From Salinispira sp. (GTDB lineage Bacteria; Spirochaetota; Spirochaetia; DSM-27196; Salinispiraceae), in contig OZ271918.1 in assembly GCA_965602015.1 (NCBI GenBank), forward strand, positions 2,720,001 to 2,784,000: DNA of 64,000 nucleotides. Reading direction: 5' to 3'. Positions 42,001 to 54,000 of the stretch are shown piece by piece. A program made the position numbers. The stretch's first letter is position 1, and each line of letters starts with the position of its first letter.

Positions 42001-45000
42001 TCTCGCTCCGGATTTTATTTCTGATTTAGCAGAATATCTGAATAGACGTCATAATCTCTATTCGAAACAGGAAAATGCCTCAAGCATTGGATTGATGGTT
42101 ATGCTAACGGTCTGCAGAGAACTCAACTGGGATTTGATTTTTTCCAACTTGGATAATAATGAGGGAGTTCAGGCGGAACTTCGCATTCCCGCGTCAGGCA
42201 GTAGGCAAAGCGGGATGATCGACCCGGAGGTCTAATCACCCAGTATTATTACTTCTCCGATCACCGTTACTGCAACTTTTCCATCAACGAGCGCCTGACC
42301 GATCATCGATGCAAAATACCCGTCGAAGTCGAGTTTTTTCGCCAAGAGGGTGACTGTGCTGCCTGGCAGGATGGGCTCGAGATAATATGCGCCTGCGATT
42401 CGGGTGGCCCGGGCCGGGACTGGAACCGCATCGGATGCAATATCGGTTTTCCCCCGGGTCTCGAAATAGTACATGCATAGGCCGAGCTGACCGATCATCT
42501 CGAGGGTAAAATTCCCCGGATAGAGCGGAGCGCCGGGGAAATGTCCCTGAAATACCGGATCGCCGGGATCGATATAACGATCTCCGGCGATAAGTCCGGC
42601 ATCCAGGTCAAGACCGGTGATTCGGTCAATGAATAGCAGAGGTTCCCGATGGGGAATGATTTTCTCTATATCCTTTTTTCCATAGTCGCAGCTGACCGGT
42701 AGCGTAGACGGGTCGAACAGAGCTTTTTTTCGGAAACTGCGAAGCAGCTTATCGGGATCGTTCATTGTTGTCCGGTCCTTTTTTTTGCGCGCTCGTTTAA
42801 TTTTGCGCGATCATGTTTTTTGCGCAATCATGTTTTTGGCGCTTGTACTATCATTCGGCACTTGAATTGTGCTTTACGGCGCAAACTAGGCTTTAAGGCC
42901 CTTCGCGATGACGTCTTCCATTATGTTGAGTGCTGTATCCATATCTTCCCTGTTGAACTGGGATGAGACTGAGATCCGGAACCGTCGGGCATGGGCGGGA
43001 ACCGCCGGATAGTCAATGGGCTGGAGAAACAGTCCCCGCAGCTGCATTTCGGCGGCGAAGCGAAAGAGTTTTTCTCCGCTTGGCCCGATGATCACCGGGA
43101 TGACCTGGCTTTCGCTGTCGCCGATGTCCAGGCCCATAGCCTGTATGTTTTCCTTGAGGTAGCGGGTATTGGACCAAAGTTTATCCCGCAGGCTTGAATC
43201 TCTGGTAGCCACTTCCAGGGCCTTGATGAGTCCTGCTACAACAGGGGGGCTGGGGGCGCAGGAGAAATTCCAAGCGGATGCATATCCTTTGAGATAGCGG
43301 ACTATGGATGAATTTGAGGCGATGAATCCGCCGACTCCGCCGAAGCTCTTGCTCAGGGTTCCGTATGACATTCCCACCTTATCTTCAAGGCCGAAGTACT
43401 CGCCGATGCCCCCGCCATGGTCTCCGAACATGAGGGTTGAATGAGCCTCATCCAGGTAAACCGGTGTGTTGTACGCATCCGAGAGCTTGACGATTTCCGG
43501 GAGCTTGCAGAGATCCCCGTCCATTGAATACACGCCTTCGACGCAAATCAGTTTTCTCTTGTCTTTGAACTGCTCGAGCTTTTGCTCGAGGCTGTTCATA
43601 TCATTGTGATCGAAAAAGACCATCTTGGCGCCGGAAAGGGTTCCTCCGTCGATCAGGCTTTTATGGATTTTTTCATCGAAGATGACCACATCGCCTTTAC
43701 GGAGCAGTCCCTGGAGGGCGCCCACGTTTCCGCCGTATCCCGATGAGAATAAAAGGGCATCTTCCTTGCCTTTGAGTTTTGCCAGTTTTTTAGCGAACTC
43801 AAGGTGGAGATCCAATGTGCCCGATACAAGCGGTGCTCCGGAGGAACTCATGCCGTATTTATCCACCGCTTCCTTCACCGCTTCAAGCACTTCCGGATGA
43901 GTGGACAGACCCAGGTAATTATAGCTGGTCATGTTTATCATCTTCCGGCGTTTCCCATCCAGATTACTGAGTATTTCAGTCTCCGCGCTGGGCGCCTTCA
44001 ACAGGCTCTGTCCGGTAAAACTGAATGCAGTCTGAACTTCGGGATCCAGGAACCATTCCTCGAAATCCCGAGGCGGGTCCAGAACATTGGGACTGTCGTT
44101 ATAATGAAAATCCGCGAGACTAAAATCGGTAGCTTTTGCCATGGTAATTCCTCATTTTGGGATAGATCCGGATGTGGGGTGGATGATGAGAAAGACGGGA
44201 TGATATCCAGGTATGACCGGAGGCCCCATCCCCTGCCGGAACGTCACCGTCCGGCGGAACGGAAATGATCCCGAGCCGCCGGTGGTGAAAGTGGAGCGTA
44301 CTACTCGACGTGCTCCATAAATTTGTCAGCGAGTCCGTCGATGTCACCGATGTCAGCCAGTTCGGAACGGGGGATCTTGATATCAAGGTCCCGCATTGAA
44401 CAGCTGACAACTTCGATAATATCGAGGCTGTTGGCGCCGTAATCCTTCATGGACTTGGAGGCGTCAATTTCATCCATTTCGATATCATCAAGATTATCGA
44501 CGATGTTTTTTTTGATGACTTCAATGACTTCGTTCTTCGTCATGATGTCTCTCCTCTATTAAATCCGTCTCAGTACGGCAAACTCACGGGCGAAAAACCC
44601 GTGGACCGAATCAGGACGTTTGGTTCCGCTTCTCCTTCCAGAGGAGGAAGCGGTGCATGGTATTATCTGAAAAAGGATGGCCGTAGTCAACATTCACCAC
44701 CTGACCATTCATTCCGTCCATGTATCCGCTTGCAAAGGCGAATACCGCCTTTCCGCATTCGTCGGGAGTGAGAATGAGACTTTCATCCGCAAGCCCCTGC
44801 TCCCGAATGTAATCGAAAAACTCTTCCCCAAAAATGGCCGAGAAGCTTTCGGTTTTCACCTGTCCGAATCGAATGACATTAACCCGGGAACCCTCGGGCA
44901 GAAGATGGGCGGCCATATACTTGCCGAAAAATTCCAACAATGCCTTGGAGGCCGCGACATAATCATACCCCGGATAAAAATGATCGGGGCCGTCGCTCGA

Positions 45001-51000: not shown

Positions 51001-54000
51001 AATGAAAGGGGCCGCTGACTTTGAGCCGAACGACTTTCATTGCGCCGGCCTCATCAAGGGCGGCTTCGGCGGCATCAAGGCCTTCGGCGGTGCCGGCAAT
51101 CACCATCTGAACCGGAGAACTGTGATTGGCTATGAATACACCCTTTCCCGCGAGGGGTTCTACCACAGCCCGGGCATCTTCAAAGGGGAGGCCCAGGACC
51201 GCTGACATTGCGCTGGGTCCCACGGGGCTGTCGGCAGCCCGGGAGCCTTTTTCCATCACTTCGCCGCGGATTGCCACCGCTTCAAAGAGGTCTTGAGTCG
51301 AAAGCACACCGGCTTCGTGCAAGGCGGCGTACTCGCCGACGGAAAAACCCATGACCGCGTCGGGTGTGAATCCCTTGGAACGCAGCAGGGCTGCCGCGCT
51401 AATGTTCATCAGGGTGACAGCCGCCTGGGTATTGTCGGTTTGCTTGAGGTCATCCTCGCTTCCATCAAACATCAACGCCGCCATGTCTTTTCCCAGCACC
51501 CGGGAAGCCGAGGCAAACAGCCCCCGGACCTCATCGCTGGCCTCGTACAAATCTTTCGCCATACCCGGATACTGGGCTCCCTGACCGGGAAATAAAAAAA
51601 CCGTGCTCATATAAACCGTCCCTTACAATGACTTGCCGTATACCCGGTGAGTCCGATAATGCTCGGCTCCCCAGTTTTCAAGCATATTCCTCAGATCGAG
51701 ATTGGATTCCAGAATCCAGCTGAACTCCGCCCCCGCTATGCCCATGCCGACGCTTCGCTTGTACAGTTCGTAGACGAACAGGGCGTCGATTCCCTTCTTT
51801 TGGTAGGCCTTGCGCACGCCGAATGCGGCGATGCGGATGTTCTCGCATTTTTTCTTGCCCGCCAGAAGCTTAAAGACCCCGAAAGGAAGAATTTTACCGT
51901 TTAAACCGTGGAAGACCGGGTTTAGATCGGGGATGGGGAAGGCAAAACCCACCGGCTCGCCGTCGACATAGGCGAACAAGGTAATATCGGGCATTATCGC
52001 CATCTTCAACCCGTCGGCCAGTTGATCGAATTCCTGTTTATTCCAGGGGACATATCCCCAGTTGTCAGTCCATGCGTCATCCCACATATCCCGGACGTAG
52101 TCAAGATCGCGCTTCCAATTCTTCATATCGACATTGCGGATCTCCACCCTGCTCCGTTTCCGGGCCAGTTCGGCAACCCGGACGATTTTGTCGCTGAGTT
52201 TCATGGTGGTTTTCATGCGGTAGGAATACAGATCCTGGTCCTTGGTGTAACCGGCGGACTCATAGTGTTTTCCGTAGTACGGCGGGTTGTAGGGCATCTC
52301 GATAACCGGCAGGGTTTCGAAACTGTCTATCTGGTTACCAAGCTGATAATTGGTCGAACCGTGAACCGGTCCCATGGCCTTTTCCATTCCCCGCTCGCGC
52401 AGCCAATCCTCTGCGGCGGCGAACAGCGCGGAAGATACCTCTTCATCGTCGTAGGCCTCGAAGAAGCCCACAAATCCGGTTTTGGTATTCTGATACGTGC
52501 AAAAAGCGCGGTCCACGATGGCGACGATGCGGCCCACAACCTCACCGTCCCTCCAGGCGAGGAACTCCTGCAGCTCCGCATGATCGAATAGTCCGTTATG
52601 CTTGCGGTCGAAAAGGTGCTTCACATCCATATCTAAGGGCGGGACCCAGGCGTCATATTTCGTCGCCTGGCCGCGGTACACCCGATAAGGAAATTTCATA
52701 AAGCGTGAAAAATCCTTTTTGCCGTCTAACGGCCTCACTTCAACTGCCATGAATAGCTCCTCAAGGTTTCCGGTGTAATATGGTCAGCAGTATACGGGGA
52801 ATTCTCAAAAATTGGCAAGGTATGCCGAATCGGGTTCAGAGTCGCACAGCGCAGGGCATACATGCGGCATTCCGCCTTCTCTGTTATATTCCGGTGCACC
52901 TTCTCTATTATATATAAAAAAAAGACCGGCCGGCGGCCGGTCTCTTAATACTGCATACAATGCCTGTACCCCGGCGACAGATTCGTACGCGGGGGCACGT
53001 ACCGATTATACGGGCTATTCCGGCGTTCCCCCGGGAAGAACGGTCTGGGTCGCATCATCGACCCGGGCGGCAAAATGGGTGTCGAAGAGGGCGCTGTTCC
53101 GGCTGTCCGAAATCTCAATAAAACCGTCGGTTCCCACATCGGCGTTTTGCAGGTCCGCATCGGTCATGCTGCTGAACCAGTCGTCAGGATTGAGCACTAC
53201 CTGGATTTCGTAATTCTGGCCGGCTTCCACAGTCAGCTCTCCGGCCACCGCTTCAAAAACTTCCCCGGAAATAAACACCACCCGGATGTTGTTGCCGTTC
53301 CAGGTGCCTTCGAGCAGAATGCTGGGAGTCGAACCGTCATCGAGTAATTCGGCTCCGAAATTAACACTTCGGTATACCCCGGGAGTCAACACAAAAGACG
53401 GAAGCGCCGGTTCCGACACACCGGTTAACAGGTTCACTACGCTCAGCGAAGGCTCGGTAACCGAAACCGAACCGTCAGGTCCATCGTAATCGAATACTAT
53501 TTCGGTAATTCGGGCTTCGGCAGTGGTCCACACCGGCAGTTCAGTCAAAGCCCGTGAGGTTACGCTGGGGTGCAGTACGAATTTCGTACTGACAACGGGT
53601 TCCGAGTTAAACAGGCTGCAGCCTGCGGTAATGACGAGCAATAGCAGCATCGCCAACGGCGTAATAATTCGTTTCATAATCATCCTCCTCTCGAATGATA
53701 TGAGCGGAAAATTAACACCATCATATTCAAAAAACCATATGCAGCAATTTTTTTTTGGATTTTTGAAAAGAAAATGTCAGCGCTTTTTTACCTAATGGAA
53801 ATTTCTACGAACCGGCGGGTACAAAATCCGCCTTCTGTTCGTCCACCGACACGGCGGAAACTATCACATCGATGGGATCTCCGAGGCGATAGATCTTTCC
53901 GCTCTCCCGGCCCCGAAGCTGATACAGCTGTTCGTCGAACTCGTAACGGTCATCCTTCATGCTGCTCAAATGGATGAGACCGTCTATCAGGTATTCGCTG

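Follow-up and report, generated by a model that had tools for sequence, protein, structure and literature searches.

What does a spirochaete make with polyketide-type branching enzymes encoded beside a sphingolipid-type synthase? HMG-ACP synthases are known for introducing beta-branches when polyketide assembly lines tailor their products; in this genome such branching seems to stand on its own and to lead to a probable membrane lipid. The window, 64,000 nucleotides of Salinispira sp. (assembly GCA_965602015.1, contig OZ271918.1, positions 2,720,001 to 2,784,000, forward strand), contains at 42232..52750 an operon that is widely conserved yet unstudied, and that joins a private fatty-acid synthase (FAS), polyketide branching enzymes and an amino-acid-condensing enzyme. 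Our literature search found no paper describing it, and the main text of the Black Sea paper makes no mention of spirochaetes. We propose that this organism's probable product is a sphingolipid-like lipid with a methyl branch, made by a route not yet described.

Gene order and co-inheritance

The eleven ORFs, identified by Pfam, NCBIfam and PDB searches, are all intact and co-directional on the minus strand with intergenic gaps of -55 to 158 bp, in agreement with the preliminary description; the ESM Atlas added only generic family names. Nine form the conserved unit, in the order ketosynthase (KS), ketoreductase (KR), HMG-ACP synthase (HMGS), ECH1, ECH2, enoyl reductase, ACP, alpha-oxoamine synthase (AOS) and FabZ, accompanied by a FabF about 5 kb away and usually by a 4'-phosphopantetheinyl transferase (PPTase). 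Colinearity of the nine holds in 17 of 27 related loci, the other ten being cut by contig ends and one of these also interrupted. Across 401 genomes, the AOS and the operon FabF were found only alongside the operon HMGS: an AOS orthologue occurs in 20 of the 21 genomes with an HMGS orthologue and in none of the 380 others, the FabF in 16 genomes, all among the 21, and a bCerS-family protein in 21 of 21 against 119 of 380, counts that overstate the association because kin are not independent. Carriers of the operon belong to 11 families of spirochaetes and to two further candidate phyla, and a metagenome scan added two operon loci (of 13). Most carriers are uncultured; one deposited, cultured type strain, Salinispira pacifica, encodes an AOS that is 86% identical. 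These data support the branching cassette, private type II FAS and AOS as one tightly co-inherited unit.

The first two genes of the local transcription unit, encoding a bCerS/YghO-family GNAT N-acyltransferase (51623..52750; PF00583) and the malonyl-CoA:ACP transacylase FabD (50663..51610; profile matches), are local add-ons outside this core, adjoining the operon in three and two of the 27 loci, respectively. FabD is the only copy in the genome and is therefore common to the operon and the housekeeping FAS, for which FabF, FabG, FabH, FabZ, FabV and an ACP are encoded separately. Just 5' of the GNAT gene, a terminator-like hairpin of the upstream gene is followed by a sigma70-like promoter (52789..52946, minus strand); both rest on consensus matches, whose counts did not exceed those in shuffled sequences.

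The operon-specific FabF (36051..37295, plus strand), which the preliminary description had overlooked, is the tenth core member. It is flanked by a PPTase (35231..35995, minus strand; profile match), which adjoins the operon in many relatives, and by an OlsC/LpxO-type acyl 2-hydroxylase (34355..35113, plus strand; profile match), a possible tailoring enzyme linked to the operon only in a same-genus genome; LpxC was not found in the genome. The PPTase and hydroxylase, earlier placed elsewhere, thus lie 5-8 kb off the operon 3' end. An IS21 element described as upstream is in fact downstream in the operon's reading direction, nested inside a second insertion sequence.

These insertion sequences and the low GC next to the 3' end, together with the single FabD, would fit a chance juxtaposition of housekeeping genes (BioF or Kbl, FabD, FabG, FabZ) with an orphan polyketide cassette. 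Synteny largely refutes that reading, which we consider very improbable: gene order and near-perfect co-occurrence extend across all these families and phyla, and Kbl and the housekeeping FAS genes exist separately. Recent horizontal arrival was likewise rejected, as operon GC matches that of the genome (0.541 vs 0.538), a match that also speaks against chance juxtaposition, and the nested insertion sequences lie outside the operon and are absent from the same place in a related genome (G332).

Branching cassette and ketosynthases

The PksG-type HMGS, PksH- and PksI-like ECH pair and AcpK-like ACP of the preliminary description were all confirmed by PDB and NCBIfam matches. HMGS (47311..48555) has CurD as its best PDB match (E 2e-75), with PksG next, and carries the Glu, Cys and His triad of ACP-type HMG synthases; a mevalonate role was rejected, a separate mevalonate HMG-CoA synthase locus being present elsewhere in the genome. 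The ECH1 dehydratase (46359..47324; PksH/CurE type by residues, profile and PDB) has six PDB matches, including the LnmF-like entry 4nnq, PksH and 8ahq. The ECH2 decarboxylase (45550..46362, with a likely ATG start at 46362) exceeds the PRK07110 cut-off, matches PksI and CurF in the PDB and retains the conserved C-terminal catalytic His. The stand-alone ACP (44301..44543) has the donor ACP CurB as best PDB match, and its GANS motif recurs in 22 of 22 rows. No acceptor ACPs of a modular PKS were found in the complete genome, which has two PP-binding domains (the second being the housekeeping ACP), one AT domain and four stand-alone KS genes.

Discrete FAS enzymes surround the cassette: a FabG-type KR with S-Y-x3-K (48573..49316; ATG at 49316 the likely start), a FabZ-type dehydratase retaining His and Glu (42232..42765) and a protein at 44611..45432 formerly labelled an SDR, which its Y-x6-K signature and best PDB match identify as a FabI/FabL-type enoyl-ACP reductase; the same signature disfavours a ketosphinganine reductase. 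The locus thus shares donor-type ACP, HMGS, ECH1 and ECH2 with the bacillaene (AcpK/PksF/G/H/I) and curacin (CurB/C/D/E/F) cassettes but lacks a modular PKS, has one ACP only, includes a complete KR/DH/ER/FabF set and would release its product through the AOS. Their KS is a condensation-incompetent KS0, whereas here the catalytic Cys is retained.

This KS (49316..50599), of PksF-like ancestry, has PRK07103 as its best NCBIfam match, below cut-off. Cys-His-His and His/Asn/Trp at E. coli FabF positions 107/108/343 are conserved in 119-120 of 120 homologues, the Cys in all 120; the Cys-to-Ser change of a KS0 occurred only in L059, a different cassette, with Ser/Asn at 107/108, similar to the His/Asn here. 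Residues such as His/Asn at these positions presumably close the long acyl tunnel, which suggests a KS0-like pocket favouring a short substrate. A fold search with the structure model returned only FabF folds and no discriminating neighbour. The searches made yielded no characterised member of this type (Cys kept, KS0-like pocket); in the representative search, dominated by multi-module PKSs, the comparison covered 10 single-domain rows of 150. The linked FabF also has Cys-His-His, and its Asp/Glu at position 108 (15 of 15) may limit chain length.

From gene content, intact active-site residues and co-inheritance, we infer a PKS-free pathway, which we consider the probable one, in which a methyl-branched chain grows on the private ACP, an amino acid is condensed with it, and N-acylation yields a ceramide-like membrane lipid. 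FabD would load malonyl onto the ACP, and the Cys-retaining KS would supply acetyl-ACP and acetoacetyl-ACP, the latter converted by HMGS to HMG-ACP; CurD takes acetoacetyl on its donor ACP (PMC11522927). ECH1 and ECH2 would then yield 3-methylcrotonyl-ACP and the enoyl reductase isovaleryl-ACP, to be elongated by the linked FabF with KR, FabZ and enoyl reductase. If the branch is iso-terminal, the chemistry repeats four steps of the alternative Myxococcus isovaleryl-CoA route (HMG, methylglutaconyl, methylcrotonyl, isovaleryl; MvaS, LiuC, AibA/B, AibC; PMC5389471), but ACP-bound rather than CoA-bound, coupled to an AOS, and with a crotonase-type decarboxylase and FabI-type reductase in place of AibA/B and AibC.

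The pocket residues of the KS point to a short substrate, so that the mid-chain beta-methyl or vinyl branch first proposed is not established and an iso-terminal one has a chance no smaller. We tentatively favour the iso-terminal form, at well short of an even chance. Salinispira pacifica makes iso-C15:0, iso-C13:0 and C16:0 2-OH (PMC4511686). The normal VorB-Buk-Ptb route to branched primers is encoded in the genome; beside it, making an iso primer de novo seems superfluous, a point against our preferred pathway.

Within that pathway, one or more internal methyls are a somewhat less probable outcome: the KS would extend a growing chain to which HMGS, ECH1, ECH2 and the reductase add a beta-methyl, and the Asp108 FabF with KR, FabZ and reductase would extend past the branch, once (3-, 5- or 7-methyl) or alternating, isoprenoid-like. 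In favour of such a route are two co-inherited Cys-His-His ketosynthases with remodelled pockets, a full private KR/DH/ER set kept despite housekeeping FabG, FabZ and FabV, and a genome with no need for a second isovaleryl source; a tandem pair of these cassettes on a Serratia fonticola plasmid is what two branchings in succession would call for. The presumed tunnel-closing KS residues speak against it, as does the lack of any mid-chain methyl acid above 0.5% in the S. pacifica fatty-acid table, where a long-chain base would not appear. In the alternating variant, which we think quite unlikely, two ketosynthases would take turns on one ACP, HMGS branching then full reduction, giving a 3,7,11,15-tetramethyl-type chain, an isoprenoid pattern assembled out of malonyl units that bypasses the intermediates of the mevalonate and MEP pathways. 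The resulting terpenoid-like sphingoid base would be comparable to the tunicate lipid aplidiasphingosine.

The alpha-oxoamine synthase and its substrates

In the preferred pathway, the PLP-dependent AOS (42886..44142) would form a branched 3-keto sphingoid-type base by joining the branched acyl chain to an amino acid. By sequence and fold, its closest solved relative is Sphingobacterium multivorum Spt (E 3e-80, vs 2e-56 for CFAT and 2e-27 for CqsA), and it has the AOS fold with the PLP Lys, His, Asp and Arg; a fold search with the structure model recovered AOS-family folds only and no discriminating neighbour. The protein falls below the cut-offs of the curated Spt models (333/640, 264/500 and 221/670 bits), has Ala at the Ser81 position and lies outside the canonical Spt clade, a single clade being rejected (p-AU 0.0008) in quick trees whose canonical group, picked after the first tree was seen, comprised four GSRFLNG-type Spt beside bCerS and no biochemically characterised Spt. 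We treat it as an unnamed subfamily. BioF and Kbl were rejected (327/426 and 318/460 bits, both under cut-off); a true Kbl lies elsewhere, and no BioD-sized ORF was found in the genome, in line with the earlier remark that the BioF-like match lacked biotin partners.

The co-substrate may be serine, which we rate a little below even, less probably alanine, or another amino acid. Cysteate or another bulky amino acid would give a non-sphingoid or sulfur-containing lipid, capnine-like or new, an outcome we regard as unlikely. Like the acyl-ACP-using SulA/CFAT enzymes (PMC9304779, PMC13692747), the AOS has Ala at the trans-subunit side-chain position; this Ala and a Gly-Tyr pair of the window protein match CFAT Ala82 and Gly114-Tyr115 (PMC13692747), and Lys/Arg follows the PLP-stacking His in 119 of 120 homologues. 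Yet all 120 homologues have Cys in place of the SulA-defining Lys281 of the trans-subunit wall (PMC9304779), the match to CFAT is no stronger than those to other AOS, and the Tyr at the Asn53 position also occurs in some Spt enzymes. First-shell residues do not determine specificity (PMC13692747).

Many of the nearest AOS relatives outside the operon clade adjoin genes for histidine kinases, HD-GYP, EAL/HDOD or PilZ proteins; in this genome, as in L031, a membrane kinase converges on the operon 3' end, and L046 encodes a 7TM kinase after FabF. With both KS pockets possibly restricting chain length, these neighbours make it conceivable, though improbable, that the operon yields a branched amino-ketone or hydroxy-ketone of short or medium chain length, serving as a CqsA/LqsA-like signal or secondary metabolite that a membrane kinase senses, bCerS being incidental. 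CqsA is the weakest match class (CqsA/LqsA model, 185/428 bits) and the adjacent kinase is not conserved; of 30 flanking ORFs scanned at 12 further loci, one encoded a sensor kinase, and a SpoIIE/Cache protein was also seen. The bCerS family occurs in every operon genome, and some loci are bordered by lipid genes (glycosyltransferase, LPG-synthase TM protein, epimerase).

Proposed N-acylation and relation to known lipid pathways

In the preferred pathway the GNAT would N-acylate the base to a ceramide-like membrane lipid. It is 34% identical to E. coli YghO (E 3e-69), which we take to be the E. coli bCerS homologue; a PDB sequence search gave nothing significant. The genome has two further bCerS-family paralogues, where one had been reported. 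In L046, bCerS and a CerR-like epimerase independently adjoin the operon; with that epimerase, not a characterised CerR, as query, the best match in Salinispira sp. was 24%, and a clear CerR did not emerge. The Caulobacter Spt-bCerS-CerR pathway (PMC11087976) shares an Spt-like AOS, a dedicated ACP and a bCerS-family GNAT; there the ACP is loaded by an acyl-ACP synthetase, whereas here an own synthase would make the chain de novo, the AOS is non-canonical, bCerS is mostly unlinked and CerR is not evident. Pseudomonas fluorescens MYb115 SgaAB (PMC12134224) likewise couples a dedicated chain synthase to AOS release of sphingoid bases, but its C24-C28 sphinganines come from SgaA, a single iterative type I PKS, in place of discrete type II enzymes and a branching cassette.

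Of the original proposal, the co-inheritance of cassette, private FAS and AOS is supported; serine, the mid-chain branch, a core bCerS and identity with the Salinispira aminolipid are not established. A bCerS role keeps its support from the family's presence in all operon genomes, not from adjacency, and the aminolipid link is weak because a GlsB/OlsF-type acyltransferase, an alternative source, is also encoded. The sub-cut-off AOS outside the canonical Spt clade, rare bCerS adjacency, missing clear CerR, kinase-adjacent AOS relatives, a possible chain-length limit in the linked FabF, and the canonical Spt-bCerS locus that two genomes (G058 and G020) carry in addition to the operon count against a branched sphingoid. 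Sister cassettes, in contrast, terminate in a PlsC-type acyltransferase, which points to membrane acyl chains. If correct, the proposal would add an acetate-derived route to methyl-branched lipids and bring free-living spirochaetes, together with candidate phyla from anoxic habitats, into the range of sphingolipid-type chemistry; orphan branched sphingolipids of environmental lipidomes would gain a possible source.

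Composition and distribution of the operon

On the minus strand, positions 52750 to 42232 of the window contain eleven intact ORFs with intergenic gaps of −55 to 158 bp, bearing out the eleven co-directional genes of the preliminary description; the genome that contains them is closed (3.87 Mb, 99.7% complete). In reading order they encode a GNAT that matches YghO, the E. coli homologue of bacterial ceramide synthase (bCerS), at 34% (E 3e-69), FabD, a ketosynthase (KS), a FabG-type ketoreductase (KR), an HMG synthase (HMGS; closest solved relatives CurD and PksG), ECH1, ECH2 (PksI, CurF), an SDR with a Y-x6-K signature whose top PDB match is an enoyl-ACP reductase (ER), an ACP with the curacin donor ACP CurB as top match, an alpha-oxoamine synthase (AOS; top match S. 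multivorum serine palmitoyltransferase (Spt), E 3e-80) and FabZ. Catalytic residues are retained in HMGS, ECH1, ECH2, KR, ER and FabZ, and the GC content of the operon equals that of the genome (0.541 and 0.538). The GNAT gene is directly preceded by a hairpin resembling a terminator and by a promoter-like site, of kinds no commoner than in shuffles. The IS21 element (38229–40432, istA/istB) had been placed upstream but is 3' of the operon, inserted within a second IS at 37296–40739 with 20-bp inverted repeats; the nested pair is missing at the same place in a same-genus genome.

Across 401 genomes drawn from the phylum, the HMGS was matched in 53, with 21 at a minimum of 58% identity, spread over 11 families. 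Among 27 related loci of the operon type (L063 and L065 were left out as duplicates of L034 and L043), KS-KR-HMGS-ECH1-ECH2-ER-ACP-AOS-FabZ is complete and colinear in 17; the remaining 10 run into a contig end, and one of these also carries a restriction-modification insertion. Among the carriers with a name are Spirochaetales, Brevinematales, Ca. Firestonebacteria and FCPU426 MAGs. An AOS orthologue (at least 66%) occurs in 20 of the 21 HMGS-orthologue genomes, the exception being 73% complete; the remaining 380 lack one, and no match there exceeds 44%. The original list of eleven genes overlooked a FabF at 36051–37295, 5 kb from the 3' end of the operon, which was found in 16 of the 401 genomes at E 1e-125, all within the 21 operon carriers; two further genomes have partial copies next to the operon. 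This linked FabF is the tenth member of the operon, and a PPTase often comes after FabZ in related loci.

The bCerS-like gene, previously counted as part of the cluster, lies beside the operon in only 3/27 loci and FabD in 2/27, the latter being the sole FabD of this genome. The association with bCerS nevertheless stands at genome level, where a family member is encoded in 21/21 operon genomes versus 119/380 others (kin among them not being independent), and the family is also widespread without the operon. At L046, in a different family, the operon has a bCerS-family gene together with an NAD-dependent epimerase divergently beside it, a linkage independent of that in the window.

Because housekeeping FabH, two FabF, FabG, FabZ, FabV and ACP, together with a true Kbl and a mevalonate locus, are encoded separately, the operon represents a pathway of its own. 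With no more than two ACP domains and one AT domain, the genome has no modular PKS. The mevalonate locus includes a gene (L103:6714-9266) for an 850-aa protein in which an FMN-dependent (IDI-2-like) domain is fused to HMG-CoA reductase.

Active sites of the ketosynthase and oxoamine synthase

The top-scoring model for the operon KS is PksF-like (335 bits, below cut-off). Cys-His-His is kept in 120/120 homologues, and at E. coli FabF positions 107, 108 and 343 they carry His (119/120), Asn (120/120) and Trp (120/120), as do 21/21 loci. Positions 107 and 108 presumably line the acyl tunnel, and an I108F mutant structure appears among the fold-search matches; from the changes at these tunnel positions we infer a KS that would act on short substrates or decarboxylate. 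The true KS0 (a ketosynthase unable to condense) of related locus L059 has Ser-Asn at 107–108, and residue 108 of the linked FabF is Asp or Glu in 15/15. Such condensation-incompetent KS0 are usual in branching cassettes, according to excerpts of PMC11522927.

The AOS retains the PLP Lys, His, Asp and Arg. Ala-Pro replaces the Ser-Arg of canonical Spt (119 and 120 of 120 homologues), Lys or Arg comes next after the stacking His (119/120), Tyr occupies the Asn53 position and Cys that of Lys281 in the cysteate acyltransferase SulA (120/120), with SulA and Spt reference positions from a partial text of PMC9304779. The enzyme falls under the cut-off of each of the Spt, BioF, Kbl and CqsA family models, and its predicted structure is closest, by a small margin, to S. 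multivorum Spt. Quick trees placed the 23 operon AOS rows in one clade, with uncharacterised AOS genes as sisters. A single clade of the operon AOS and four canonical Spt beside bCerS was rejected (p-AU 0.0008, for 24 rows in a quick tree and a group picked after the first tree was seen); on this and the sub-threshold Spt score, the operon AOS is placed outside the Spt family.

The Pro and the basic residue that follows His recur in the AOS of the acyl-CoA synthetase-ACP-AOS-bCerS loci L179-L183, so both changes can go together with a bCerS partner. The AOS of L179-L183 carries GSPL and HRS motifs and groups apart from GSRFLNG-type Spt, and these loci possibly represent a second non-canonical sphingolipid pathway. 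Since first-shell residues do not determine AOS specificity (PMC13692747, in extract), the amino acid used by the operon enzyme is not readable from its sequence; a non-serine amino lipid is, in our judgement, an unlikely product. Many sister AOS genes lie near sensor kinases or cyclic-di-GMP proteins, and we consider it unlikely that the operon makes a small amino-ketone signal.

Proposed lipid product and source of the branch

The operon probably makes a branched sphingoid-type lipid: the private ACP would carry a methyl-branched acyl chain during its assembly, the AOS would release the chain as a 3-keto sphingoid-type base, and the bCerS-like GNAT would N-acylate that base. No clear ceramide-pathway reductase (CerR) was found in the genome, where the best match to the CerR-like L046 epimerase is 24%, so the base may keep its 3-keto group or have it reduced by the operon KR. 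All the parts are familiar, and as a combination they appear undescribed. In the open-access literature no paper was found that brings together HMG-CoA synthase, enoyl-CoA hydratase, an oxoamine synthase and an acyl carrier protein in a gene cluster, and the matches listed include no description of an operon of this make-up and, for sphingoid or oxoamine chemistry, no mention of beta-branching; spirochaetes are absent from the available main text of PMC11334938. The operon works like HMGS branching cassettes but without KS0 or PKS, and like the Spt-bCerS pathway but with an AOS outside the Spt family.

For the branch we tentatively favour an iso-primer route, in which acetoacetyl-ACP would be converted through HMG-ACP, methylglutaconyl-ACP and methylcrotonyl-ACP to isovaleryl-ACP, then elongated by the linked FabF, KR, FabZ and ER, as an ACP-bound counterpart of the myxobacterial isovaleryl-CoA synthesis outlined in extracts of PMC5389471. 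This route agrees with the closed KS pocket, the single donor-type ACP and the reductase, and CurD takes acetoacetyl on its donor ACP with threefold lower efficiency (excerpts of PMC11522927). Against it, a VorB-type 2-oxoacid:ferredoxin oxidoreductase, butyrate kinase and phosphate butyryltransferase at 56313–60962, 4–8 kb upstream, are a conventional source of branched acyl-CoA and supply ordinary branched primers. A branch internal to the acyl chain, which we hold to be somewhat unlikely, would fit the two specialised ketosynthases and also a tandem pair of Cys-KS/KR/HMGS/ECH cassettes with AT, ACP and FabZ on a Serratia fonticola plasmid (CP013914.1; L198:9344-15985 and L237:12796-18318). 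The plasmid enoyl reductase is 37% identical to that of the window, several cassette genes look frameshifted in that record, and the two stretches read contain no AOS.

A cultured carrier exists, which raises the interest of the operon: the AOS is 86% identical to a protein that NCBI names Salinispira pacifica. A GlsB/OlsF-type acyltransferase is encoded both in the genome under study and in the same-genus genome, and the usual aminolipid stain needs a free amine, which an N-acylated base lacks. The S. pacifica aminolipid once put forward as the operon product therefore need not derive from it. The accessible part of PMC4511686 reports this lipid as major and unidentified, and gives the fatty acids iso-C15:0 (11.7%), anteiso-C15:0 (4.3%), iso-C13:0 (2.1%), C16:0 2-OH (1.8%) and iso-C14:0 (1.6%). 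From the anteiso and iso-even acids it follows that primers derived from amino acids are in use, and C16:0 2-OH fits the OlsC-like hydroxylase linked to FabF in the genome under study, where LpxC was not found.

Related cassettes and other loci

A sister PKS-free cassette (L051, L054, L055, L057 and L058, from G119, G032, G067, G140 and G077) comprises a Cys-retaining KS, SAM methyltransferase, KR, HMGS, ECH1, ECH2 and ACP, with a PlsC-type acyltransferase and AcpS in two loci and an AOS in none of those listed. Its product is probably a branched glycerolipid acyl chain, and the PlsC-type acyltransferase at the end of the cassette suggests that cassettes of this sort produce lipid acyl chains.

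Elsewhere, a bCerS-family clade with an adjacent CerR-like NAD-dependent epimerase (L072, L075, L078, L080, L082-L087 and L089) has no AOS beside it within the short loci read. Uncharacterised AOS genes recur with a FemAB-like GNAT and histidine kinases (L164, L165, L167-L170 and L172), some also with a PilZ protein or FAD oxidoreductase, and these loci are a candidate amino-ketone signalling system. The two other bCerS-family paralogues of the genome (L097:3703-6442 and L098:6135-8666) each adjoin an MFS_2 (GPH-type) transporter, one also lying near a PlsC-type acyltransferase. At 29507–33502 of the window, a 1331-aa protein fuses ResB-like, cytochrome c assembly and ferredoxin-reductase/2Fe-2S domains in what is presumably a fermentative spirochaete.
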